Origin: an uncultured Gammaproteobacteria bacterium
GTDB taxonomy: Bacteria; Pseudomonadota; Gammaproteobacteria; Steroidobacterales; Rariloculaceae
Assembly: GCA_963702105.1 (NCBI GenBank)
Contig: OY969712.1
Coordinates: 4,232,388-4,296,387, forward strand
DNA: 64,000 bases
Reading direction: 5' to 3'
The translations under genes and the position numbers were made by a program. This document shows positions 15,546 through 53,749 of the stretch, piece after piece (the stretch's first letter is position 1; the number at the start of each line of letters is the position of its first letter). The notes beneath the pieces are model-generated. The model was not told where the DNA came from. It saw nothing but the letters and a program-made list of their open reading frames with translations, and made no database searches.

Positions 15546-15584
15546 ACGCGCTATGCCGTCGGCCGCACGATTCATGAACGGGTC

Positions 15585-15716
15585 GGCCGCACTCATGGAC
15601 GCCGTCGGCCGCACTCATGGACGCCGTCGGCCGCACTCATGGACGCCGTCGGCCGCACTCATGGACGCCGTCGGCCGCACTCATGGACGCCGTCGGCCGC
15701 ACTCATGGACGCCGTC
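15585..15716. repeat. 22-bp tandem repeat x6 (GGCCGCACTCATGGACGCCGTC)
   Basis: Perfect head-to-tail copies with no spacers. They are flanked on both sides by the related box GCCGTCGGCCGCACGATTCATGAACGGGTCGG (15555-15586 and 15711-15742). Confidence 0.9.
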
Positions 15717-15720
15717 GGCC

Positions 15721-15905
15721 GCACGATTCATGAACGGGTCGGGCGCCGCGGTTGGGGCGGAGGTTCGTGCATGAGGCCGCTGTCGGGACCGGCGTGAATC
15801 CGTCCCTGGAGCCTTCGTGCGCGCCATCCCTGGCGCTCACGATCCCGACAGCGGCCTCATGCACGAACCTCCTCTTCGACGTGGGCGGCCGTTCATGAAT
15901 CGTGC
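15721..15905. repeat. full-length nested-palindrome element (MITE/REP-like), copy 1
   Basis: 17-bp terminal inverted repeats GCACGATTCATGAACGG / CCGTTCATGAATCGTGC. Inner arms GGAGGTTCGTGCATGAGGCCGCTGTCGGGA / TCCCGACAGCGGCCTCATGCACGAACCTCC (15759-15872). Conserved core GCGCCATCCCTGGCGC plus CCGTGAATCCGTCCCTGG. Confidence 0.8.
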
Positions 15906-15979
15906 TGAATCCGCGCGGGGAACTCGCTCGAGCAAAGACGCCAGGTTCCTGCGCTCGTCGGAGCTCACGACGATCACAG

Positions 15980-16070
15980 CCGTCTCAGACCGACGTCTCG
16001 GGGCGGAGGTCTCGGCCCGAACTACCAACGTCTCGCGGCGAACGTCTCGGCGCCAACCACCGACGTCTCA
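15980..16070. repeat. degenerate ~35-bp units, inverted relative to the 16187-16404 array
   Basis: Units such as CCGACGTCTCGGGGCGGAGGTCTCGGCCCGAACTA contain GTCTCGGC and GGGCGGAGG. These are the reverse complements of GCCGAGAC and CCYCCGCCC in the right-hand array. Confidence 0.5.
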
Positions 16071-16192
16071 GGGCGGAGGGCTCGGCACAAGGGCGGTTTC
16101 GGGACGCTGAGCGCCAGGGATGGCGCTCAGCGAGCGCCCAGGGACGGGTTCACGGCGGTCCCGAAACCGCCCTTGTGCCGAGCCCTCCGCCC
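16071..16192. repeat. REP-like palindromic element, core copy 2
   Basis: Arms GGGCGGAGGGCTCGGCACAAGGGCGGTTTCGGGA / TCCCGAAACCGCCCTTGTGCCGAGCCCTCCGCCC. Core GCGCCAGGGATGGCGC ... CCAGGGACGGGTTCACGGCGGTCCCGA. Confidence 0.8.
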
Positions 16193-16404
16193 ACCCCACC
16201 GACGTATCGGCGCGGAGACCTCCGCCCAACCCACCGACGTGTCAGCGCGGAGACCTCCGCCCACCCCACCGACGTGTCAGCGCCGAGACCCCCGCCCACC
16301 CCACCGACGTGTCAGCGCCGAGACCCCCGCCCACCCCACCGACGTGTCAGCGCCGAGACCCCCGCCCACCCCACCGACGTGTCAGCGCCGAGACCCCCGC
16401 CCCA
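16187..16404. repeat. 35-bp tandem repeat, ~6.2 copies (CCGCCCACCCCACCGACGTGTCAGCGCCGAGACCC)
   Basis: Period 35 checked at 16191/16226/16261/16296/16331. The last four units are identical. The array abuts the stop codon of the minus-strand gene at 16406. Confidence 0.9.
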
Positions 16405-16405
16405 C

Positions 16406-16912
16406 TCAGAGCTTCCGCGAGTCGTAAGCCCAGTGCAGCAGCGCCTGCCGTTGCCGCCGGCGGCAGTCCAGGTCGCCGCGTTCGCAGTGCTTGCGGATCT
16501 GCGCCGCATGACGGCGCACCGCGCGCCAGCGCTTGACCTGGCGCGCATCGTCGTCGCAGCGTCTGCCGAGGTAATAGCGGCAGTACCACTGGAACCAGCC
16601 GCGCGGGTCCTCGTGGTAGATCCAGCCCTTGCGGCGCCACTCCGCGAGCGGTTGCGAGGCATTGACGCCGAAATAGTTGAGTTCCGGGTTGCGTCGTTCC
16701 GGCGAGAGCTTGGCGCCCGCGAACCACTCTCTCGGGAACTCTTCGCGGCAGTCGGTCAAGTACTTGCCGCCGAAGACGCCGAGCTCGAGCATTTCGGAGG
16801 GCGTCAGCTCCGGCGCGAAATAGGGGTCGAAGTCGCTGCCCGGCGCGACCGTGCGAAAGTAGACATAGCCCGACTGCATGCGGTCGTTCACGACGATTCT
16901 TCGAGGCTTCAC
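16406..16912 (-). CDS. conserved-looking hypothetical protein, Trp/Cys-rich (no family recognised)
   Basis: Track ORF 16406..16972. I prefer the GTG at 16912, which overlaps the upstream GNAT stop as GTGA. The alternative is the ATG at 16879. Non-biased sequence: ...GVFGGKYLTDCREEFPREWF...NYFGVNASQPLAEWRRKGWIYHEDPRGWFQWYCRYYLGRRCDDDARQVKRW... Confidence 0.6.
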   Translation of the reverse strand: MKPRRIVVNDRMQSGYVYFRTVAPGSDFDPYFAPELTPSEMLELGVFGGKYLTDCREEFPREWFAGAKLSPERRNPELNYFGVNASQPLAEWRRKGWIYHEDPRGWFQWYCRYYLGRRCDDDARQVKRWRAVRRHAAQIRKHCERGDLDCRRRQRQALLHWAYDSRKL

Positions 16913-17514
16913 GGCGGCCTGCGCTCCAAGGAGATTCGGCGAGACGCCGCTCCTTCGGGGGACGGCAGCCACCAGTCGGTCAGCGTCCAGCCGGCGTTCT
17001 CGAGCCAGGCGGCGCCCGGCGGCGGGCGGCGCGGCCGGCCCTTCGCGAAGCCGAGCCGGGCGAGGAGTCGGGCGATCCTCTCGTTCTGTGTCACGGAGAC
17101 GCAGCGCACCTCGGCGAGGCCGAGCGATCGGAAGCCGAAGTCGAGAAGCAGGCGCGAGGCTTCCGCCGCGAGGCCGCGGCCCCAGCGTTCGGGCGCGAGC
17201 TCGATGCCGAACTCGGCGTAGCCCTGCGGCAGGCGCCCCGCGAACAGCCCGCAGCAGCCGATGAGCCGCGCGGGCTCGCGGTCGGGATCCCCCTCGAGGA
17301 TCGCGAGCTCGTAATTGCGGCGCGGCCGCTCGGCGGCCCAGGCGATGAACCGTTCGAGCAGCCGGGCCGAAGCCCCCGGTGCGCCGGCGTCGGCCGCATA
17401 GAACGCGAGACAGCGCGGGTCGCTGCGGTAGCGGGCGAAAGCGGGGCCATCGGCCGGCACGAAATCCCGAAGGAGGACGCGCGCCCCCGCGAGCTCGAGA
17501 CTATCGCCGCGCAT
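16909..17514 (-). CDS. GNAT-family N-acetyltransferase (RimJ/RimL-like)
   Basis: Only the last 201 codons of track ORF 16909..18654 are credible: MRGDSLELAGARVLLRDFVPADGPAFARY...ELAILEG...GYAEFGIELAPERWGRGLAAEASRLLLDFGF..LGLAEVRCVSVTQNERIARLLARLGF. Confidence 0.8.
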   Translation of the reverse strand: MRGDSLELAGARVLLRDFVPADGPAFARYRSDPRCLAFYAADAGAPGASARLLERFIAWAAERPRRNYELAILEGDPDREPARLIGCCGLFAGRLPQGYAEFGIELAPERWGRGLAAEASRLLLDFGFRSLGLAEVRCVSVTQNERIARLLARLGFAKGRPRRPPPGAAWLENAGWTLTDWWLPSPEGAASRRISLERRPP

Positions 17515-18786: not shown

Positions 18787-19707
18787 ATGGCTCAGCGTAT
18801 CGGCTTTATCGGTCTCGGCGTCATGGGCACGCCCATGGCCGGCCACCTCTCGAGGGCGGGCTACGAGCTCGTCGTCTACGACATCGATGCCGAGAAAGTC
18901 CGGCGGCTCGCGGCACACGACCGCGTCGAGGCGGCCGGGAGCCCGCGTGAGGTCGCGGCCCGCAGTGCCGTCGTCATCACCATGCTGCCGTCCGGCGAAT
19001 ACGTACGCGCCGTCGCGCTCGGCACCGACGGCCTCATCGAAGGCTTCGAAGGCGGCGAGCTGCTGCTCGACACCTCGTCCTCCGAGCCCTGGTACACGGC
19101 GGAGACTGCGGCGGCGCTGGCCGAGCGCGGCGTGGACACCGTCGATGCGCCTGTCTCGGGCGCCGAGTGGGGCGCGAAGGCCGCGGAGCTCGTTTTCATG
19201 GTCGGCGGCAAGGCCGAATCCGTTGAGCGTGCACGGCCGCTGCTCGAAGTCATGGGCAAGCGCATCTTTCATCTCGGCCGCCTCGGCGCGGGCCATGCCA
19301 TGAAGTCGATCAACAACACAATCACCGCCATGACCCTGCTCGCGACGTCGGAGGGCCTTGCGCTCGGCACGAAGCTCGGCCTCGATCCGAACGTCATGAC
19401 CGATGTGCTCAACGTCTCGACCGGCATGTCCTGGGTCAGCCAGACGCACATCAAGCAGCGCATCACGAATCGCGCATTCGACGATCCGTTCAAGCTCGAG
19501 CTCATGGTCAAGGACGTCCGCATTGCGCTCGAGCTCGCGGCGCAACAGTCCGTGCCGCTGCCGTTCAGCGCGCTGGGGCGCGAGCTCTGGCAATCGGCAT
19601 CGGACGCGGCCGGGGCCGGCGCGAGCGTCAGCGACCTCGTGCGCGCCGTCGAGGCGCGGACCGGTGTCGAGATCCGGCCTGCCCCCGAACCCGAAGCTGC
19701 GCCTTAG
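18787..19707 (+). CDS. NAD(P)-dependent oxidoreductase, 3-hydroxyisobutyrate/6-phosphogluconate dehydrogenase-like
   Basis: N-terminal Rossmann motif IGFIGLGVMGTPMAGHL. Family-typical length (306 aa). Confidence 0.85.
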   Translation: MAQRIGFIGLGVMGTPMAGHLSRAGYELVVYDIDAEKVRRLAAHDRVEAAGSPREVAARSAVVITMLPSGEYVRAVALGTDGLIEGFEGGELLLDTSSSEPWYTAETAAALAERGVDTVDAPVSGAEWGAKAAELVFMVGGKAESVERARPLLEVMGKRIFHLGRLGAGHAMKSINNTITAMTLLATSEGLALGTKLGLDPNVMTDVLNVSTGMSWVSQTHIKQRITNRAFDDPFKLELMVKDVRIALELAAQQSVPLPFSALGRELWQSASDAAGAGASVSDLVRAVEARTGVEIRPAPEPEAAP

Positions 19708-24277: not shown

Positions 24278-24474
24278 AATCCGTCGCGCTACCGGTCGGC
24301 CGCAGGCTTCATGAACGGTTTGGGCGACGGTGGCGAGGAGGAGGCTCCTCGCGGTTCGCTGACCGACGCACGCTGATCCGCACGGTGGCGTCCGGTCCGC
24401 GCTCTTCACCATCCGGGTGCGATGACCGCGGATCGGGCCGTCTTCGAAGACCGCGACAGCTGCAGAACGTCTGC

Positions 24475-24596
24475 GGGCGGAGGCGTCGGCGGAAGGGCGG
24501 TGTCGGGATCGTAAGCGCCAGGGATGGCGCTTACGAAGCGTACACGGACGTATTCACAGCGGTCCCGACACCGCCCTTCCGCCGACGCCTCCGCCC
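24475..24596. repeat. REP-like palindromic element, core copy 3
   Basis: Arms GGGCGGAGGCGTCGGCGGAAGGGCGGTGTCGGGA / TCCCGACACCGCCCTTCCGCCGACGCCTCCGCCC. Core GCGCCAGGGATGGCGC. A lone TTCATGAACGG box lies at ~24309-24322. Confidence 0.8.
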
Positions 24597-24645
24597 ACCA
24601 CCACCTATGCGTCCGAAGCGGTCTTAAGCCGGCCGGCAGCCCGCG

Positions 24646-26616: not shown

Positions 26617-26642
26617 AAAAAGGGGGCAGAGCCCTTTTTTTT
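26617..26642. terminator. A-tract/hairpin/T-tract element (bidirectional intrinsic-terminator-like), copy 1
   Basis: AAAAAGGGGGCAGAGCCCTTTTTTTT. Confidence 0.5.
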
Positions 26643-26684
26643 GAGCGGCCGCGACGGCGACGGATCGAGCGCTCGCCGCGCGCG

Positions 26685-26708
26685 AAAAAAGGGCTCTGAC
26701 CCCTTTTT
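26685..26708. terminator. A-tract/hairpin/T-tract element, copy 2 (inverted copy of 26617-26642), overlapping the stop of the MFP gene
   Basis: AAAAAAGGGCTCTGACCCCTTTTT. Its reverse complement differs from copy 1 by about one base. Confidence 0.5.
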
Positions 26709-29912: not shown

Positions 29913-32900
29913 CTAAAGCTTCGATTGGCTGAGCTGCCGATAGTATTCGGCGACCGCGTCCTCGTAACCCTTCTCGATCTTGACGGGAGGTTCGGTCCTG
30001 ACGGCGTCCGATTCGTCGCTGCCGCCCGCCGATTTGTCGAGCTTCAGCTCGAGCTGATCGACCTCGTTCGCGAGCGTCTGAAAGTCCTGCGCAATGGCGT
30101 CCGGGTTCCCGGTACCCGCGAGTGCGGCTCTGAGCTTCTCGCCAAGAGCCTGCACGGCACGCAGCTCCTCGTCGCTGAGCCCCTGCGCGCGCAGCTTCGA
30201 GCCGAGATTCAGCAGATCGTTGCCAGCCGTCTGCAGCCGATCCCGGGCCTGCGCGATCGTCTGGGGATCCCAGCGGAACGACGGGTCGTAGGGGCCCCAG
30301 ACACGGTCCGTGTTCGGGTTGTAGTAGCCGCCGCCGCCGTTGTTGTAGCCGCCGCCGGCATAGTTGCCGCCCGCGGCCCCGCCGCCCCCGCGCTGACCCG
30401 AGGCCTGCTGCCCGCCCTGCTGACCGCCGGCCTGCTGAGCCTGCTGACCCTGCTGACCGGGCTGGCCGTTGGCCGCCTGGAGATTCTGCTGGCTCTGCTG
30501 GTTCTGCTGGCCGGGCTGCGTGCCGGGCTGCTGGGGGTTGCCCGGCTGCAGCGCGCTGCCCGGCTGCCCGTTCGCGGCCTGCTGCCGGTTCTGCCCTGCG
30601 CCGGGCGCGCCGTTCGGGCGCGCCTGACCGCCCGCGCCGCGGTTCTTGAGGTCGTTCATCTCGCGGCGCAGCGCCTGCAGCTGCGCGACGAGCTGCTGGT
30701 TCGGGTCGGCCGTCGGCCGGTCGCCCTTCTCGGCCTCGCTGCTCGCGAGCGCGAGCGCGTCCTTCGTATCCTGCTCGAGGTCCCTGAGCGCCTGGGTCGT
30801 GACCGCGTCGGTCGCGGCGACTTCGGTCGCGTACCCTTCGCGGATGCCCTCCGCCGCGGTCGTGAGCCGTGCTTCGGCCTGCGACTGCTGGAGCTTCGTC
30901 AGCGACTTATCGAGCTGCTTCGCCGCGCCCGGGGTCTGACCACGGAACTGCTGCGAGACCTGCTCGATGTCCTTCTCGAGCGCCTGCAGATCCTTGCCGA
31001 GCGCGTCCTTGCGGTCGCCGAACTCGGCCGACTGGCGATCGTCGAGATCGCTGCGGAAGCGGTCGCCGCCGCTCGATTTCCGCAGCGCGGCCTGCAGCTG
31101 CTCGGCCAACTGCCGTTGACGTGCGTAAAGCTCGCTCGAGCGGTCCGCGAGGTCCGAGAACGCCTTCGAGGCGTCGGCCTGGCGTTGGGCCGTCATCTGC
31201 TGGAGCGCCTGCTGGAGCTGCCGGCGGGCCTGCTCGATCGCGCGCCGCGCCTGCTCGGGGTCCACGTTCTGACCCGCGGCGCTCGCGCGGTCCATGGCCT
31301 GCAGCGCGGCGTCGAGCTGCTGTATGGCCTGCTGCGTGGCAGAGTTGCCGGCCGCCTGACCGCCGGCCTGCGCCTGCTGCTGGCCCGGCTGCCCCGGCTG
31401 TCCGGTCTGCCCGGGCTGTCCCGACTGCTGCTGAGACTGGCCCTGCTGACCCTGCTGGCCCTGCTGACCCTGCTGGCCCTGCTGACCCTGCTGGCCCTGC
31501 TGACCCTGCTGACCCTGCTGACCCGGCTGATTCGCGGCCAACTGCTGCCGCTGGAGCTGCTCGAGCTGGCGCTTGAGCTCCTCGGTCTGCCGCCGCAGCG
31601 ACTCCTGCTGCCAACGGTCGCGCTCGGTCAGCTGCTGCCGGTTCGCCGCGAGCTGCGCAAGGCTCTCCTGCCGGCGCGCGAGCTCCTGAAGCTTGCGGAT
31701 CGCATCGTCTACGCCCTGCTGCTGCTGCTGCTCGAACGAGACCGGCTTCTCCGTTTCGTACTGGTTCTTCTCCAGGTCCATCTCGAGCTCGAAGAGCTCG
31801 CTGAGGTCCCGCCCCGCGAGGCCGCCGCCCCCGCCGCCGCCGTTACGCTGGAACGAGACCTGGATGTCCGTGAACAGCGATTCGGCGTGGATCAGGTGCT
31901 GGAGCGCTTCCTGCTCGGGCGTCACGGCGTCCGAAAGCTTCACGTCTCCGAGCCGCTCGGCCGCAGGCTTCATCGAGTCGGACGCCTGCTCGAGGCTCTT
32001 GACGAACTCGGCGATGCGCGGGTCCCGGTCCGTGAGCTCGCGGGCCTTCGTGCGCGAGGCGAGCGTCTGCGCCTCGTCCGAGAGCGTGCGCTGCATCTCG
32101 GACAGCATCTTCGAGTTGTCCTCGATCTGCTGTTTGTCGAGGAAGCTCGAGCCCTGGTCTTCGCGCTGGCGGATCAGGTTCCAGGTCGCGACGAGGATTT
32201 CCTTCTGCCGGCGCGAGATCTCATCCTGCCGCTGGCCGCCGCCGCCGCCCCCGCCGCCGGCTTGGCTCGACTGCGTGTAGGAACGGTCGAAGGGCTCGAC
32301 CTGAATGAAGTAAAGGTCGGTCTGGACCGTGTGGTCGCGATCCTTGGCGACGGCGTAATAAGAGATCAAGTCGCCCGGCTCGAGCTTACCGGCCGCGCGC
32401 GCAATCGCCGCCTGCGCGTCCCCAGCCGGCGCAGGGCCGCCGGCCTCCGGGGCCGACTCCCCGCTCGGGGCCTGCCGCTGCCGGAACAGATCGAGCGGCG
32501 AGGGCGCGGGCCCCGCGGGACCCGCGCCGCCGGCCGTCGTCGCGGCGCCCGTCACGGCCTTGCGCAGATCCTCGAGGTAGAGCGTCTTCTCGTCCTCCGC
32601 GTGCGTGCTCCCGGCATCCAGGGCCGCCGTGTGCCACTCGCCGCCGTTGATCGAGTAGTGCAGCTCGACCTGATTGAGGCCGAAATCGTCGCTGGCCTCG
32701 ACGTCGAGGGGCACTTCCTCGATTCGGCTCGCGCGGTAGTCGCGGCCGGGCTTGACGAGCTTGATGACGGGCTTGTTGTCCGGCACGACCGAGATGAAGT
32801 AGTCGTCGGTCAGCTTAACCTTGTCCTTGTCGAACAGCGTCGAGACGTAATACTGGCCTTCCTTGTCCACGTCGATCGTGGCTTTGCTCACGTTGCCGCT

Positions 32901-33917
32901 CGTCTGCATCTCGATGGGCTTGCCGTTCGCGACGAGCTGTGCGTGATCGAGCGGCTTGTCGGTCTGCACCTCGAGCTCGACCTGCGTGCCGGCGACGGCG
33001 CGGATGTCCCCGCCGGGGTCCTCCGTGTGCGTCTGCAGGTGGCTCCAGTCGGGATAGTGGTACGTGAGCTTGAGATCCTTGATGCGCGGCAGGTCCACGA
33101 CGTTGACGGCGTAGTTCGGGCTCTTGATGCTCGCGGCCGTGACGTAATAGCGCAGCGGCTCGCGCACCGCGTAGAACGTGAACCCGAACCCGTCGCCTTT
33201 GCGCGTCATATCGGCGCTCTGCCAGCCCTGGCCCGACTCGAACTGGGCGAAGACCTGCATCTTGACGGGCGCGAAGCCCTCCGCGTGCGCGTCGATGACG
33301 AGGTCCCCGCCGCGGCGCAGCGTCTGATCGCCGGGCTGAACCTGGATGTGCTGGGGAGGCAGCGTGTTATTGAGGAACCATCCGGCCCACAGATGGCGGA
33401 TGCCGTAGCGCCAGTTCGGCGGCCCGAAGGCGGCGAGCCCGATGAGCGCGCCGAGGCCGACGACGGCGAGTGCCCCGGGCACGGAGATCTGCCAGGACGG
33501 GACCTTGACGGCGGCCGGAATCCGGCGCGCGAACCGGAGCGCGTCCTCGGCCAGCAGGCCCAGGAACGGCGAGCGCCGCTCCGCGGGCGCTTGGGCGAGG
33601 CCGTCGTAAGTCTCGAGCCGGCCGTCGAAATCCGGTGCGCGCCGCTCGATGTCGGGAATGCCGCGGCTGCGCTTGAGCCGGCGCAGCGGCATTGCGACAA
33701 GCGCCGCGATGACGGCGCCGAGCGCGAGCGCGAGCAGCAGCCGCATCCCGAGCACGAAGCCCGGATCGAAGGCCCTGCGCATGCCGAAAAAGACCGCGAC
33801 CACCGTGATAACGAACGCCGCCGCCGCGGCAAGGGCCGTCCCGCGCGCGACGATGACCCCGGAAAGCCGTCCACGAAACTCGCTGAGATAGGCCTCGAGC
33901 TCTTTCTGTGCGGACAT
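29913..33917 (-). CDS. giant membrane protein of the MoxR/VWA cluster: 3 N-terminal TM segments, Ig-like beta-rich region, ~600-aa Q/G-rich coiled-coil/low-complexity region and a structured C-terminus
   Basis: AAGGAA RBS. TM segments ALAAAAAFVITVVAVFFG, LLLALALGAVIAALVAM and GALAVVGLGALIGLAAF. Beta-rich DLPRIKDLKLTYHYPDW...VELHYSINGGEWH. Coiled-coil heptads and a (QQG)n tract. The architecture recalls DUF4175/TIGR02302-type proteins (from memory, unverified). The equally long plus-strand ORF 29904..33932 is L/R/A-biased and was rejected. Confidence 0.75.
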   Translation of the reverse strand: MSAQKELEAYLSEFRGRLSGVIVARGTALAAAAAFVITVVAVFFGMRRAFDPGFVLGMRLLLALALGAVIAALVAMPLRRLKRSRGIPDIERRAPDFDGRLETYDGLAQAPAERRSPFLGLLAEDALRFARRIPAAVKVPSWQISVPGALAVVGLGALIGLAAFGPPNWRYGIRHLWAGWFLNNTLPPQHIQVQPGDQTLRRGGDLVIDAHAEGFAPVKMQVFAQFESGQGWQSADMTRKGDGFGFTFYAVREPLRYYVTAASIKSPNYAVNVVDLPRIKDLKLTYHYPDWSHLQTHTEDPGGDIRAVAGTQVELEVQTDKPLDHAQLVANGKPIEMQTSGNVSKATIDVDKEGQYYVSTLFDKDKVKLTDDYFISVVPDNKPVIKLVKPGRDYRASRIEEVPLDVEASDDFGLNQVELHYSINGGEWHTAALDAGSTHAEDEKTLYLEDLRKAVTGAATTAGGAGPAGPAPSPLDLFRQRQAPSGESAPEAGGPAPAGDAQAAIARAAGKLEPGDLISYYAVAKDRDHTVQTDLYFIQVEPFDRSYTQSSQAGGGGGGGGQRQDEISRRQKEILVATWNLIRQREDQGSSFLDKQQIEDNSKMLSEMQRTLSDEAQTLASRTKARELTDRDPRIAEFVKSLEQASDSMKPAAERLGDVKLSDAVTPEQEALQHLIHAESLFTDIQVSFQRNGGGGGGGLAGRDLSELFELEMDLEKNQYETEKPVSFEQQQQQGVDDAIRKLQELARRQESLAQLAANRQQLTERDRWQQESLRRQTEELKRQLEQLQRQQLAANQPGQQGQQGQQGQQGQQGQQGQQGQQGQQGQSQQQSGQPGQTGQPGQPGQQQAQAGGQAAGNSATQQAIQQLDAALQAMDRASAAGQNVDPEQARRAIEQARRQLQQALQQMTAQRQADASKAFSDLADRSSELYARQRQLAEQLQAALRKSSGGDRFRSDLDDRQSAEFGDRKDALGKDLQALEKDIEQVSQQFRGQTPGAAKQLDKSLTKLQQSQAEARLTTAAEGIREGYATEVAATDAVTTQALRDLEQDTKDALALASSEAEKGDRPTADPNQQLVAQLQALRREMNDLKNRGAGGQARPNGAPGAGQNRQQAANGQPGSALQPGNPQQPGTQPGQQNQQSQQNLQAANGQPGQQGQQAQQAGGQQGGQQASGQRGGGGAAGGNYAGGGYNNGGGGYYNPNTDRVWGPYDPSFRWDPQTIAQARDRLQTAGNDLLNLGSKLRAQGLSDEELRAVQALGEKLRAALAGTGNPDAIAQDFQTLANEVDQLELKLDKSAGGSDESDAVRTEPPVKIEKGYEDAVAEYYRQLSQSKL
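31441..31530. repeat. 9-bp tandem repeat (CCCTGCTGR) x ~9-10 encoding (QQG)n in the giant gene
   Basis: Read directly. The protein shows QQGQQGQQGQQGQQGQQGQQGQQGQ. Confidence 0.85.
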
Positions 33918-46551: not shown

Positions 46552-46795
46552 AGCCTCGGCGTTCAAGACAAGACGGCATCAGGCCGGTCCGGTACGCATG
46601 CACACCGGACCTGCAGCATTACGCTACATGGCTTCGATCCGAAGGCTCCATCTCGGACGTTGGCTGGAAGGTTGGTCGTTCCGCCTTCGTTCGACCGAGA
46701 ACCGAGCGCGCCGCTTAAGCACGGATCGCATCCGGCCGCTGCCAGGGTCGCTACGGGGACCCGAGCGAAGCCGACGCGCGCAAGGCCGCTGGTCC

Positions 46796-46909
46796 GGCGT
46801 GTTTGCCCATGAGGCGCCTGTCGGGACGCTGGGCGCCAGGGATGGCGCCCAGCGAGCCCCCAGGGACGGGTTTACGGCGGTCCCGACAGGCGCCTCATGG
46901 GCAAACACG
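46796..46909. repeat. REP-like palindromic element, core copy 4
   Basis: Arms GCGTGTTTGCCCATGAGGCGCCTGTCGGGA / TCCCGACAGGCGCCTCATGGGCAAACACGC. Core GGCGCCAGGGATGGCGCC ... CCAGGGACGGGTTTACGGCGGTCCCGAC. Confidence 0.8.
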
Positions 46910-46934
46910 CCGGCCCCATCAGGTCGGGTCTTCG

Positions 46935-47597
46935 TCAGCGGAGGCCGAAGAGCGACCGCGCGCGTTCCAGCCGCTCCGGCGTGCCGACGTCGATCCAGGG
47001 GCCGTCGTAGCGGACGCCGCGCAGCGTGCCGCGCGCGATGGCCGCGTCGAGGATGGGCTTGAGCGGCTGCGGGCCGGGGGTGCGGCCTGCGAAGAGCGCG
47101 GGATGCAGCAGCGCGTTGCCGCCGTAGGTCAGCTTCGGCGGCGAGTCGCGGACCCGGCCGTCGGCGTCGAGGCCGAAGTCGCCGGCCGGGTTGTGCTCCG
47201 GGTTCGGGACGAGAAGCAGCGCGCCTTCGGCGCCGTCGAGCCGGAGCGCCGCGGGATCGAAGGCCGTCAGCACGTCGGCGTTGACGACGAGGAACGGGGC
47301 CGGGCCGAGACTCGTCAGTGCACGCAGGATGCCGCCGCCGGTTTCGAGCGGCGACTCGCCCTCCTCGCTGTAGACGACGCCGAGTCCCCAGCGGGCGCCG
47401 TCGCCGACGGCCGCGCGTATCAGATCGCCGCGGCGCGCGACGTTGACGACGACCTCGCGCACGCCGGCGCGGGCCAGCCGGGCGAGCTGGTGGGCGATGA
47501 GCGGCTCGCCGCCGACTTCGAGCAACGGCTTCGGCAGCGCCGCGGTCAGGGCGCCCATGCGGGTGCCGAGACCGGCCGCGAGCACGATCGCTTTCAT
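46935..47597 (-). CDS. murU: nucleotidyltransferase, MurU-like (N-acetylmuramate alpha-1-phosphate uridylyltransferase family)
   Basis: MKAIVLAAGLGTRMGALTAALPKPLLEVGGEPLIAHQL...ETGGGI...VNADV. Divergent from lptD, as in pseudomonads (from memory). Confidence 0.65.
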   Translation of the reverse strand: MKAIVLAAGLGTRMGALTAALPKPLLEVGGEPLIAHQLARLARAGVREVVVNVARRGDLIRAAVGDGARWGLGVVYSEEGESPLETGGGILRALTSLGPAPFLVVNADVLTAFDPAALRLDGAEGALLLVPNPEHNPAGDFGLDADGRVRDSPPKLTYGGNALLHPALFAGRTPGPQPLKPILDAAIARGTLRGVRYDGPWIDVGTPERLERARSLFGLR

Positions 47598-52399: not shown

Positions 52400-53259
52400 T
52401 GCACACGCGACGCGGCGCGCCCCGCAACGGCCGCCGCGCGGGCGCACGCGCAGCGGGCTTAGAGCGAGCTGCGCCGCGTCGCGTCCATGCCCGCAGGCGT
52501 CTCGGCCAGCACTTCCTTCACGATCCGGCCGTCATCGCACGCATCGTCGCGGCCATCGCTCCGCAGCACGACGACGCCATCGTCGAAATCGGCGGCGGCC
52601 TCGGTGCGCTCACGGGACCGCTGCTCGAGCGGGTCGCCGAGCTGCACGTCGTCGAGATCGACCCGCGCCTCGGGCCCGACCTCGAGCGCCGCGGCACCGA
52701 CGAGCACCGCCTGATACTGCATGCGGGCGACGCGCTCGAATTCGATTTCGCCGCGCTCGCCCGCGCTCCGCATTCGCTGCGCGTCGCCGGCAATCTGCCC
52801 TACAACATCTCGACGCCCCTGCTGTTCCATCTGCTCGCGAGCCGCGCCGCGATCCGCGACATGCACATCATGCTCCAGAAGGAAGTCGTGACGCGCATGA
52901 CCGCTTCGCCGGGCGGCAAGGACTACGGCCGACTCACGGTCATGCTCTCGCTGGCCGCCGACGTCGAGGCCTGCTTCGACATCGGCCCCGGCGCCTTCTC
53001 GCCGCCGCCTCGCGTCTGGTCCACGCTCGTGCGCGTCACGCCGCTCGCGGCACCGCGCTTCCAACTCGCCGACGAAGCGGCCTTCGCACGCCTCGTGGCG
53101 CAGCTCTTCTCGATGCGGCGCAAGACGCTCGCCCGCATCCTCAAGGGGCGGTTGAGCGCGGCCGAGATCGAGTCGCTGCAGCTCGATCCGCGCGCGCGGC
53201 CGGAGACGCTGGCGCCATCGGACCTTGCGCGGCTGGCGGAGGCTCTCGGGGGTCGGTAG
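52399..53259 (+). CDS. rsmA: 16S rRNA (adenine1518/1519-N6)-dimethyltransferase RsmA/KsgA
   Basis: The ATG overlaps the pdxA stop (TGATG). LGQHFLHD, VEIGGGLGALT, NLPYNISTP. Confidence 0.9.
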   Translation: MHTRRGAPRNGRRAGARAAGLERAAPRRVHARRRLGQHFLHDPAVIARIVAAIAPQHDDAIVEIGGGLGALTGPLLERVAELHVVEIDPRLGPDLERRGTDEHRLILHAGDALEFDFAALARAPHSLRVAGNLPYNISTPLLFHLLASRAAIRDMHIMLQKEVVTRMTASPGGKDYGRLTVMLSLAADVEACFDIGPGAFSPPPRVWSTLVRVTPLAAPRFQLADEAAFARLVAQLFSMRRKTLARILKGRLSAAEIESLQLDPRARPETLAPSDLARLAEALGGR

Positions 53260-53300
53260 CGCGCGCGCCATCGGCTAAGGGCGCCCAGACGCCGTAGCGG

Positions 53301-53420
53301 GGCGGAGGCATCGGCTGAGGGCGGTGTCGGGACCGCCAAAATACCCATCCATGGGGGCTGCGTTGCGCGCCATCCCTGGCGCGCACGCTCCCGACACCGC
53401 CCTCAGCCGATACCTCCGCC
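53301..53420. repeat. REP-like palindromic element, core copy 5 (opposite orientation)
   Basis: Arms GGCGGAGGCATCGGCTGAGGGCGGTGTCGGGA / TCCCGACACCGCCCTCAGCCGATACCTCCGCC. Core GCGCGCCATCCCTGGCGCGC. Confidence 0.8.
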
Positions 53421-53566
53421 GGGACGCCGACTTGGCCATAGCGAAGTCCGAAGACGGCACTGATCGATCGCATCCGAACTCCGCAGGGACGCAAGTACCG
53501 AACGCCTCTGCCAGCGAGCGCAGGGACTGCCGTCTTCAAACCCACCAATTTCCTCGCGGGGTGGCA

Positions 53567-53749
53567 GCAGGATTCATGAACGGCCATCAACGTCGCAGAG
53601 GAGGCTCGTGCAGACAGGCGCTTTCGGGGCCGTGCGCGCCAGGGAGGGCGCGCCCGGAGCCTCCAGGGATGGATTCACGGCGTCCCCGAAAGCGCCTGTC
53701 TGCACGAGCCTCCGGCTGCCACCACCATTGATCCGTTCATGAATCCTGC
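53567..53749. repeat. full-length nested-palindrome element (MITE/REP-like), copy 6
   Basis: 17-bp terminal inverted repeats GCAGGATTCATGAACGG / CCGTTCATGAATCCTGC. Inner arms GGAGGCTCGTGCAGACAGGCGCTTTCGGGG / CCCCGAAAGCGCCTGTCTGCACGAGCCTCC. Core GCGCGCCAGGGAGGGCGCGC ... CCAGGGATGGATTCACGGCG. Confidence 0.8.

Follow-up and report, generated by a model that had tools for sequence, protein, structure and literature searches.

The 64-kb stretch of DNA examined here (the window), from an uncultured, Steroidobacteraceae-like soil gammaproteobacterium, carries six copies of a palindromic intergenic repeat. The best reading of these copies is that they belong to an unnamed, lineage-restricted family of non-autonomous elements of the same general kind as repetitive extragenic palindromes (REPs) and REPINs, the enterobacterial repetitive intergenic consensus (ERIC) and miniature inverted-repeat transposable elements (MITEs). 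The family appears to spread at the DNA level with templated copying of its arms, a reading to which a probability of about 0.6 can be given. Bacterial intergenic palindromes shape operon expression, genome rearrangement and targeting by insertion sequences (ISs), and few of their families are understood.

The copies, labelled A and B at locus 1, C at locus 2, D at locus 3, and E and F at locus 4, are the six longest inverted repeats of the window. They were aligned within a set of 41 copies from which a covariance model was built, its structure (P1, P2, and P3 with a bulge) drawn by hand; the model sense is the strand that reads 5'-arm-GTCGGGAC-P2-P3-GTCCCGAC-arm'-3'. With filters off, the model matched the 64 kb exactly six times, each match scoring 96-105 bits on one strand against about 30 on the opposite one, and mutual BLAST connected all six copies in both orientations. 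On the minus strand are A (15721-15905, hairpin 15757-15874, model match 15772-15859) and E (53298-53423, match 53316-53405), and on the plus strand B (16071-16192, match 16088-16175), C (24473-24598, match 24492-24579), D (46791-46916, match 46810-46897) and F (53567-53749, hairpin 53600-53713, match 53613-53700). A preliminary description of this DNA had listed six copies in both orientations, and direct reading together with the model bears this out; the limits of D, rightly located, were set too narrowly, its arms reaching 46791-46916. The core that it took to be common to all six is indeed present in each, with a different second half in C and E (ACACGGACGTATTCACAGCGG and CCATGGATGGGTATTTTGGCGG). 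The motif of the first hairpin, GCGCCAGGGATGGCGC, was found five times exactly and once with one mismatch in the window against 0.42 occurrences expected, and none of 100 shuffles reached this count of six.

All six copies are hairpins of 114-126 nt in which nearly perfect arms of 29-37 bp carry a conserved, asymmetric three-way-junction tip. RNA folding, one of the checks proposed at the outset, gave energies of -93 to -113 kcal/mol (z = -10 to -15) and a long outer stem topped by the three-way junction. The arms had been described as self-complementary within each copy, and the inverted-repeat search agreed, with 33-37 nt at 94-100% complementarity in five copies (35 bp and perfect in B) and 52 nt at 83% in A, where the alignment runs outward towards the terminal inverted repeats (TIRs) discussed below.

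The conserved module is the tip of about 55-70 nt, in which the small hairpins P2 and P3 sit on a closing helix (GTCGGGAC/GTCCCGAC). P2 is a hairpin of 10 bp whose five loop-proximal pairs are invariant and whose five distal pairs vary, four of them covarying, while P3 is a 3+3-bp hairpin bearing a UUCAC-type bulge. In the alignment of 41 copies 95.4% of the paired cells are complementary and 21 of the 34 pairs show changes on both sides; sliding the partner by 1-3 columns lowers pairing to 34-46%, and none of 500 shuffles reached the observed value on any of five measures. All four helices covary, so the element is a structured one, as had been proposed. The tip holds the invariant columns, and it is the outer part of the arms that varies. 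Both loops read C-A-N-G-G-A-N-G almost without exception (59 of 60 P2 and 58 of 60 P3 hairpins), with 23-25 nt from one GGA to the other. A [C/G]TCTTC box lies 20-80 nt 5' of the hairpin (16 occurrences in the peak 20-nt bin, 0.7 expected), and on the 3' side a CCACC(N)CC tail follows, in which C exceeds G in 49 of 57 copies. Four core subtypes were distinguished, namely I (B and D), II (C), III (E) and IV (A and F), the last being the type with TIRs.

The repeat recurs well beyond the window. A scan of a collection of species-representative genomes with the pattern TCGGGA-N6-GCGCCAGGGATGGCGC returned 38 loci, 26 of them from one metagenome-assembled genome (MAG), the uncultured gammaproteobacterium MFD02416.bin.1.279 (hereafter MAG MFD02416); the others came from Steroidobacteraceae and other gammaproteobacterial MAGs, one Porticoccaceae MAG and two Marinobacter species with one copy each. 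About 50 copies were recognized by the covariance model in these loci, many without the search pattern, and four more matches lay in two MAG stretches reached through flanking proteins, one of these being the L004 copy already counted. In the roughly 250 kb sampled from MAG MFD02416 there are at least 40 full copies. Syntenic stretches of this MAG and the window are 86-91% identical, which makes the two related species. The sequence collected for comparisons amounted to 647 kb. No model match was found in 225 kb from more distant relatives, which were obtained by a metagenome scan, share 58% identity or less in the NTP_transferase protein and are too distant to offer orthologous empty sites, and which served as a negative control for the model. 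An assembly artefact was considered and rejected, the family being present in MAGs from several independent projects and assemblers.

The earlier statement that the consensus belongs to no named family also stands. Rfam gave no match at its gathering score in the window, where only generic models of long-hairpin microRNA precursors appeared below threshold in a search to E <= 10; the core string was found in no paper by full-text search, and a plasmid collection held no BLAST match to copy A.

The two Marinobacter copies (L029:222-327 and L031:7732-7829) occupy the equivalent position in both species and their stems differ by compensated changes. Their neighbours on the two sides, apparently parts of a single operon, are a gene for a urea-transporter ATPase (urtE-like) and an amidase-like gene, the identities being read from translations of open reading frames (ORFs); the copies are antisense to both of these plus-strand genes. 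Other distant members depart from the common form. In the Porticoccaceae MAG (L016:322-480) the P3 hairpin has an extra insert of about 90 nt and the closing helix was not found by simple inspection. In two other gammaproteobacterial MAGs, of the isolates SAR87 and SAR67 (L011:2400-2610 and L022:4735-4875), the core sits inside a different outer inverted repeat, GCACGCGACTACTGACCCGCCGCGCGCAG, so that nesting is recurrent and the outer shell lineage-specific. In copies from two Steroidobacteraceae MAGs (L014:5825-5932 and L021:3207-3314) the arms are shorter and bordered by A5-7 and T5 on opposite sides; these copies resemble canonical bidirectional intrinsic terminators with the tip at their centre.

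The evidence for templated copying comes from the arms. In 61 copies compared over their full arms, Watson-Crick pairs make up 1850 of 1983 positions, with 42 G.U and 14 A.C, and mismatches number 0-5 per copy, mostly 0-2, mainly at the outer end of the extension. The length of the hairpin (median 120 nt, mostly 113-132 nt; elements overall 114-140 nt) is held even where the arm sequences are unrelated. Certain arm sequences are common to members of a subfamily. About 16 copies with near-identical cores, D among them, have arms that occur nowhere else in the approximately 650 kb collected, and arms are thus not inherited together with the core. RNA helices under compensatory mutation usually retain more wobble pairs; the near-pure Watson-Crick arms, with so few G.U, therefore point to copying of one arm from the other at the DNA level rather than to selection on RNA. 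The differences between arms had been described as compensatory variation. The covariation is real, and it is not simply slow compensatory evolution from a common ancestor, in view of the 16 or so copies with unique arms and the scarcity of G.U pairs.

Comparison of orthologous copies revealed concerted change of the two arms. Between the window and MAG MFD02416 the arms of C differ at 4 of 33 positions, approximately the background divergence, and each change is mirrored on the partner arm; the MAG orthologue also shows a central GT/AC dinucleotide inversion. At the locus of copy A about 9 of 30 arm positions differ, again all mirrored, and the MAG arms there are found unchanged in other MAG copies, evidence of exchange among the copies of one genome. 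Template switching between the arms of inverted repeats during replication is known to cause homogenisation, spacer inversion and arm growth (PMC8604942, PMC8794818, PMC13100816). The mirrored changes and the GT/AC inversion, a kind of change characteristic of template switching, may be the marks of this process, a link that we infer.

The set of copies has turned over between the window genome and the MAG, by gain, loss or replacement. At the site of D the MAG has 122 bp between the genes with no core (23 bits), and within them an imperfect 66-nt palindrome, GGGGTCCGGCGGGTTTGCGCATGAGG-CG-CCTCGTGCACAAGCGCGCCGGACCCC, homologous to the D arms. The D arm nearest the NTP_transferase gene matches this palindrome at 13 of 14 positions and the other arm at 10 of 15, yet the latter is the perfect complement of its partner in the window; this inequality favours an ancestral imperfect palindrome of which one arm was overwritten in the window lineage. 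At the site of B the MAG lacks the core and the 3' arm: the 5' arm (..GGCTTCAGGCTCGGCG) runs straight into the CCACCG tail, and the TIR-type partner and spacer are still there. A more distant relative, with an 82%-identical CitMHS protein, has only 24 bp between the genes. Beside ksgA the window has a core of subtype III (copy E) where the MAG has one of subtype I. The MAG orthologue of the TIR-type partner of C is truncated differently from the window remnant, and in another MAG the intergenic region that corresponds to that of D contains an independent TIR-type copy. Such site polymorphism (the B, D and E sites) fits the non-autonomous mobile element suggested by the preliminary description.

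The basic unit is often larger than the hairpin. The 17-bp TIRs reported for two copies, built around TTCATGAA, are exact on A and F, and B, C, D and E have none. The left TIR of A (GCACGATTCATGAACGG, 15721-15737, plus strand) has its exact inverted partner at 15889-15905, and those of F lie at 53567-53583 and 53733-53749; pairs of the same TIR about 165 bp apart were found in seven loci of the MAG lineage. A TIR-type copy, a spacer and a TIR-less copy together form a composite of about 480 bp, to which most copies belong. Loci 1, 2 and 4 are present or former composites, locus 2 being decayed: 5' of C, at 24298-24347 on the plus strand, lies the remnant of a TIR-type partner, in which a TIR-like GGCCGCAGGCTTCATGAACGG leads into the first part of an arm. 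Paired copies are 140-400 bp apart, and in all 16 pairs the left copy is on the minus and the right copy on the plus strand, the P2 hairpins facing each other. About ten pairs, both window pairs (mutually inverted) among them, are homologous across approximately 480 bp at 70-80% identity at unrelated loci; six further pairs have unrelated spacers and arms and still keep the minus/plus arrangement.

The spacer of the composite at locus 1 (15906-16070) is homologous to the spacers of other composites, and that at locus 4 (53424-53566) contains an inverted GAAGACGGCA...TGCCGTCTTC pair. The inverted pair CGAAGACGGC...GCCGTCTTCG is usual in spacers. These two sequences recur in spacers and beside single copies (53421-53566, 24430-24460 and 46925-46955 in the window, and spacers in L003, L007 and L023), and may be a further small hairpin or protein-binding site. 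A small ORF in the composite spacer was considered as a gene and rejected, as it is not conserved among composites. Tandem units of 33-35 bp with a short arm palindrome embed or flank B, E, C and many MAG copies. At locus 1, 35-bp units occur at 15989-16086, and a plus-strand array of 6.5 such units, each containing a short form of the arm palindrome (GCGGAG..CTCCGC), runs 3' of B at 16177-16402. A second plus-strand array, of 7.6 units of 22 bp derived from the left-TIR region of A, occupies 15555-15724 and opens with a solo TIR (15565-15581). In TIR-type copies the outer margin of the left TIR is a slippage hot spot, the MAG having a (GGCGT)n microsatellite there (L041:11750-11790).

The copies follow gene ends and orientation. 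All six window copies are intergenic, as first described, and most lie at 3' ends; three of the four loci lie between convergent genes by Pfam-supported gene calls: CitMHS (plus) facing a small ORF and a GNAT gene (minus) at locus 1, Meth_synt_2 (plus) facing ADH (minus) at locus 2, and a TPP enzyme gene (plus) facing NTP_transferase (minus) at locus 3. Locus 4 is tandem, with ksgA then apaH on the plus strand; E adjoins the ksgA stop codon and F lies just upstream of apaH. A divergent arrangement at locus 4 was rejected, because the minus-strand ORF at 52459-53271 has no Pfam match, the plus frame is KsgA and the MAG has the order surA-pdxA-ksgA-apaH. At the other loci genes were called with a crude program based on GC content at third codon positions; all but a few MAG copies lie between called ORFs, the exceptions probably being due to this caller. 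After a stop codon, approximately 38 of 42 copies have the model sense antisense to the gene (a tally from the same caller, Pfam-corrected), and single copies divide 13 to 3. On the model-sense strand arm mismatches are more often G.T (25-31) than A.C (6-12). Taken with the antisense bias, this excess seems to mean that the folding of one strand matters, and not of the strand in the neighbouring mRNA.

The favoured explanation combines these observations. Cores would be copied, lost or swapped between sites at the DNA level, and replication template switching or fold-back synthesis would write one arm from the other and so keep the two complementary whatever their sequence. Many copies would be nested in the shell of 17-bp TIRs or in the 480-bp composites, and selection or an insertion mechanism would confine them to gene ends in one orientation. 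At 3' ends the very stable hairpin might then be a barrier or insulator for transcripts and oppose convergent read-through. This is the most likely role, held with less confidence than the spread at the DNA level: the model-sense hairpin with its C-rich tail may stop opposing transcripts before they run antisense into the gene, or alternatively copies with AGGGA loops in the sense direction may be selected against within mRNAs. The terminator or mRNA-stabiliser role suggested earlier is likewise putative, as scans found no canonical terminator or promoter signal.

Several results weigh against this explanation. Direct target-site duplications are absent beside both TIR-type copies and unique-arm hairpins when flanks are compared; the AGGCGCCT found on both sides of the D core, being palindromic, is ambiguous as such a duplication. 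The core-less B and D sites are open to two readings, insertion in the window lineage or deletion in the MAG. A mobilising enzyme, either a REP-associated tyrosine transposase (RAYT) or another transposase, had been proposed as something to look for; none was found among the window genes scanned or the annotated MAG stretches, and tblastn with E. coli RayT against the 647 kb gave nothing below E = 2, a search of limited sensitivity covering a small part of the genomes. No IS with the TIR ends (GCAYGATTCATGAACGG) occurs in the 647 kb, and the plasmid collection was also without a match. The window copies match no terminator or promoter consensus: neither a sigma-70 promoter nor a hairpin-plus-U terminator was found in loci 1 and 4, by a terminator scan that took simple stem-loops with 3-8-nt loops only, and the copies are followed by CCACC-type C-rich sequence in place of a U-tract, A and T tracts being confined to the distant L014 and L021 copies. 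Simple template switching does not account for the constancy of arm length. Finally, the strongly conserved CANGGANG loops, the G.T excess and the one-sided CCACC tail suggest a function for one particular strand, which a purely selfish DNA repeat would not need. Four unusual features remain unexplained, namely the branched tip with CsrA-like loops, the perfect locus-specific arms of near-constant length, the strict orientation and the nested composites.

One possibility is regarded as improbable, though the least so of the alternatives. The tip of about 55-70 nt could itself be the true mobile module and build its own stem, some 30-37 bp of flank being copied inverted over a fairly fixed length by fold-back or template-switch synthesis, on arrival at a site or shortly after. 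A stem so built would yield a perfect, locus-specific palindrome of about 120-130 nt. It is similarly doubtful, though conceivable, that the CANGGANG loops are recognition sites of the responsible protein or of an RNA-binding protein such as CsrA. If the self-built stem were true, it would mean a mode of palindrome formation or of transposition that is undescribed for bacterial repeats.

The loops also raise the question of whether the tip is a functional RNA module, in which loops on the model-sense strand, carried by separate transcripts or by convergent read-through, would serve to titrate or recruit a loop-binding protein, CsrA or one like it; this is rather unlikely. The element's loops match the CsrA/RsmA-RsmE binding consensus and vary just where it allows; for RsmE this consensus is A/UCANGGANGU/A. 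CsrA itself has the consensus RUACARGGAUGU with GGA in a hairpin loop (PMC7652899), and the 23-25-nt spacing of the two GGA motifs suits one CsrA dimer. The covarying P2 and P3 stems, the strand bias of the G.T mismatches, the C-rich tail 3' and the conserved GTCTTC box 5', and a core conserved as far as Marinobacter all agree with such a module. However, the neighbouring mRNA would carry UCCCU loops in the approximately 38 of 42 copies that are antisense to the preceding gene, no promoter consensus was found at loci 1 and 4, and Rfam returned no Csr/Rsm match, the RsmW model reaching 16.4 bits against a gathering score of 52. The 35-bp perfect Watson-Crick arms, moreover, are unneeded for CsrA binding and would be RNase III substrates.

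A classical MITE, with the 183-185-bp TIR form as the transposing unit, a DDE transposase encoded elsewhere and the TIR-less hairpins as decayed or internally derived fragments, is about as unlikely as the RNA module. The size is typical of MITEs, and the exact TIRs of A and F, their recurrence at about 165 bp in the seven MAG-lineage loci and the independent TIR-type insertion in the intergenic region of D would all follow from it. The lack of a target-site duplication at any TIR-type copy is harder to reconcile, as are the conserved sequence that runs past the right TIR into the spacer and the failure to find an IS with such TIRs in the 647 kb or any match in the plasmid collection. TIR-less copies with unique arms outnumber the TIR type and have intact cores that are at least as conserved, and in L011 and L022 the core is wrapped in another outer repeat altogether.

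Less probable again is movement of the REP/REPIN type, in which single-stranded DNA would be mobilised by a single-copy HUH transposase (RAYT or IS200/IS605-like) recognizing P2 and P3 on one strand. Two similar hairpins on the same strand, with conserved loops and covarying stems, do have the look of protein-recognition hairpins, and the high extragenic copy number, the doublets always in one inverted arrangement and the strand asymmetry of arm mismatches are what such a system would produce; the asymmetric gain or loss at B, which leaves one arm, recalls the asymmetric products of REPIN excision (PMC3116915). Targeting by an IS can be added: a 1.5-kb IS110-family element (L026:1181-2700; Pfam DEDD_Tnp_IS110 and Transposase_20) lies inside the P3 loop of a MAG copy, its junctions reading ..CCTCCATGGAT before and GGATTTACGGCGGTCCCGAC.. 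after the IS, with no second copy of the IS in the collected sequence. This parallels the known targeting of REPs by IS110-family elements (PMC1525189, PMC11208160). Against all this, the architecture is the reverse of a REPIN, with the tip conserved and the base variable, no GTAG-type motif flanks the hairpin, the RayT search of the 647 kb, within its limited sensitivity, found no homologue, and orientation follows the neighbouring gene rather than a single replication direction.

Two other origins for the arms were rejected or disfavoured: capture of foreign DNA in the manner of CRISPR spacers, rejected for the arms of A and D as neither these nor the core pattern has an exact match in IMG/VR, and insertion of the core into a pool of pre-existing long palindromes, as the inverted-repeat search found no core-less long perfect palindrome in the window.

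A few other features of the region were observed. A second, unrelated hairpin repeat, AAAAAGGGG(T/G)CAGAGCCCTTTTT with A and T tracts, is present as two inverted copies at 26617-26708 and recurs in the MAG (in the L023 spacer between 6792 and 6933 and in L041 at about 19490-19520); from its sequence it looks like a bidirectional intrinsic terminator. Between the repeat array of locus 1 and the GNAT gene, an ORF for a protein-like sequence of 188 aa (16406-16972, minus strand; ..GWIYHEDPRGWFQWYCRYYLGRR..) has no Pfam match and no counterpart in the orthologous MAG region (L041). A 1334-aa ORF at 29913-33917 (minus strand) shows a weak DUF4175 match and several in-frame tandem repeats, such as CTGACCCTG ten times at 31437-31530.

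The covariance model allows the family, otherwise unannotated, to be masked or annotated in genomes. The combination of a conserved tip with perfect locus-specific arms of near-constant length makes the origin and upkeep of long perfect stems testable through filled and empty sites of close relatives, and if the CsrA-type loops were functional, the elements could form a dispersed regulatory layer.

Set against known systems, the element resembles several and coincides with none. An intrinsic terminator has a U-tract directly after its hairpin, which the window copies lack. CsrB and RsmY/Z likewise carry A(N)GGA motifs in hairpin loops, here two per element at CsrA-dimer spacing; the family differs from Csr/Rsm RNAs in having only these two sites per copy, a motif strand that is usually antisense and a 35-bp perfect duplex, with neither an Rfam match nor a promoter found. 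Correia/NEMIS elements of Neisseria and ERIC of enterobacteria, as MITEs, are similar in being non-coding and 120-185 bp long, with TIRs (here in the TIR-type copies), intergenic or 3' sites, potential long transcript hairpins and presence that varies between relatives. Unlike them, the present family shows no target-site duplication and mostly TIR-less copies, no parent IS was found in the sequence searched, and it conserves an asymmetric three-way-junction core rather than its ends, the arms coming from locus-specific sequence.

A REP is an imperfect palindrome of about 20-40 nt with a flanking tetranucleotide of the GTAG type. By size the family falls outside REPs and bacterial interspersed mosaic elements (BIMEs), at 114-140 nt with a three-way-junction tip, while its many extragenic copies (the six in the window, at least 40 in the MAG) are as in those families. 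The label REP/MITE-like given at first therefore holds for copy number, extragenic position and the TIRs of A and F; it does not hold for the GTAG motif, the size, the REPIN pattern or target-site duplication. With REPINs and REP-BIMEs of Pseudomonas fluorescens and E. coli the family shares its nature as extragenic, hairpin-forming palindromes, a length of about 100-120 nt, a copy number in the tens to hundreds, compensatory hairpin changes, fixed inverted doublets, persistence in lineages and targeting by IS110-family elements. A REPIN has conserved REP ends and a less conserved middle, the whole folding as a hairpin (PMC3116915). Here that conservation is reversed, with a conserved tip and variable, often locus-unique basal arms; there is also no GTAG motif beside the hairpin, no RAYT, which accompanies REPINs as a single-copy Y1/HUH transposase gene that they usually flank, was found in the sequence searched, and orientation is tied to the neighbouring gene. 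Quasipalindrome correction by template switching (PMC8794818, PMC8604942, PMC13100816) is a general mutational process rather than an element, and although it leaves the conservation of the tip, the spread and the near-constant arm length unaccounted for, it does account for the perfect arms, the mirrored multi-base changes, the small central inversions and the growth of arms.

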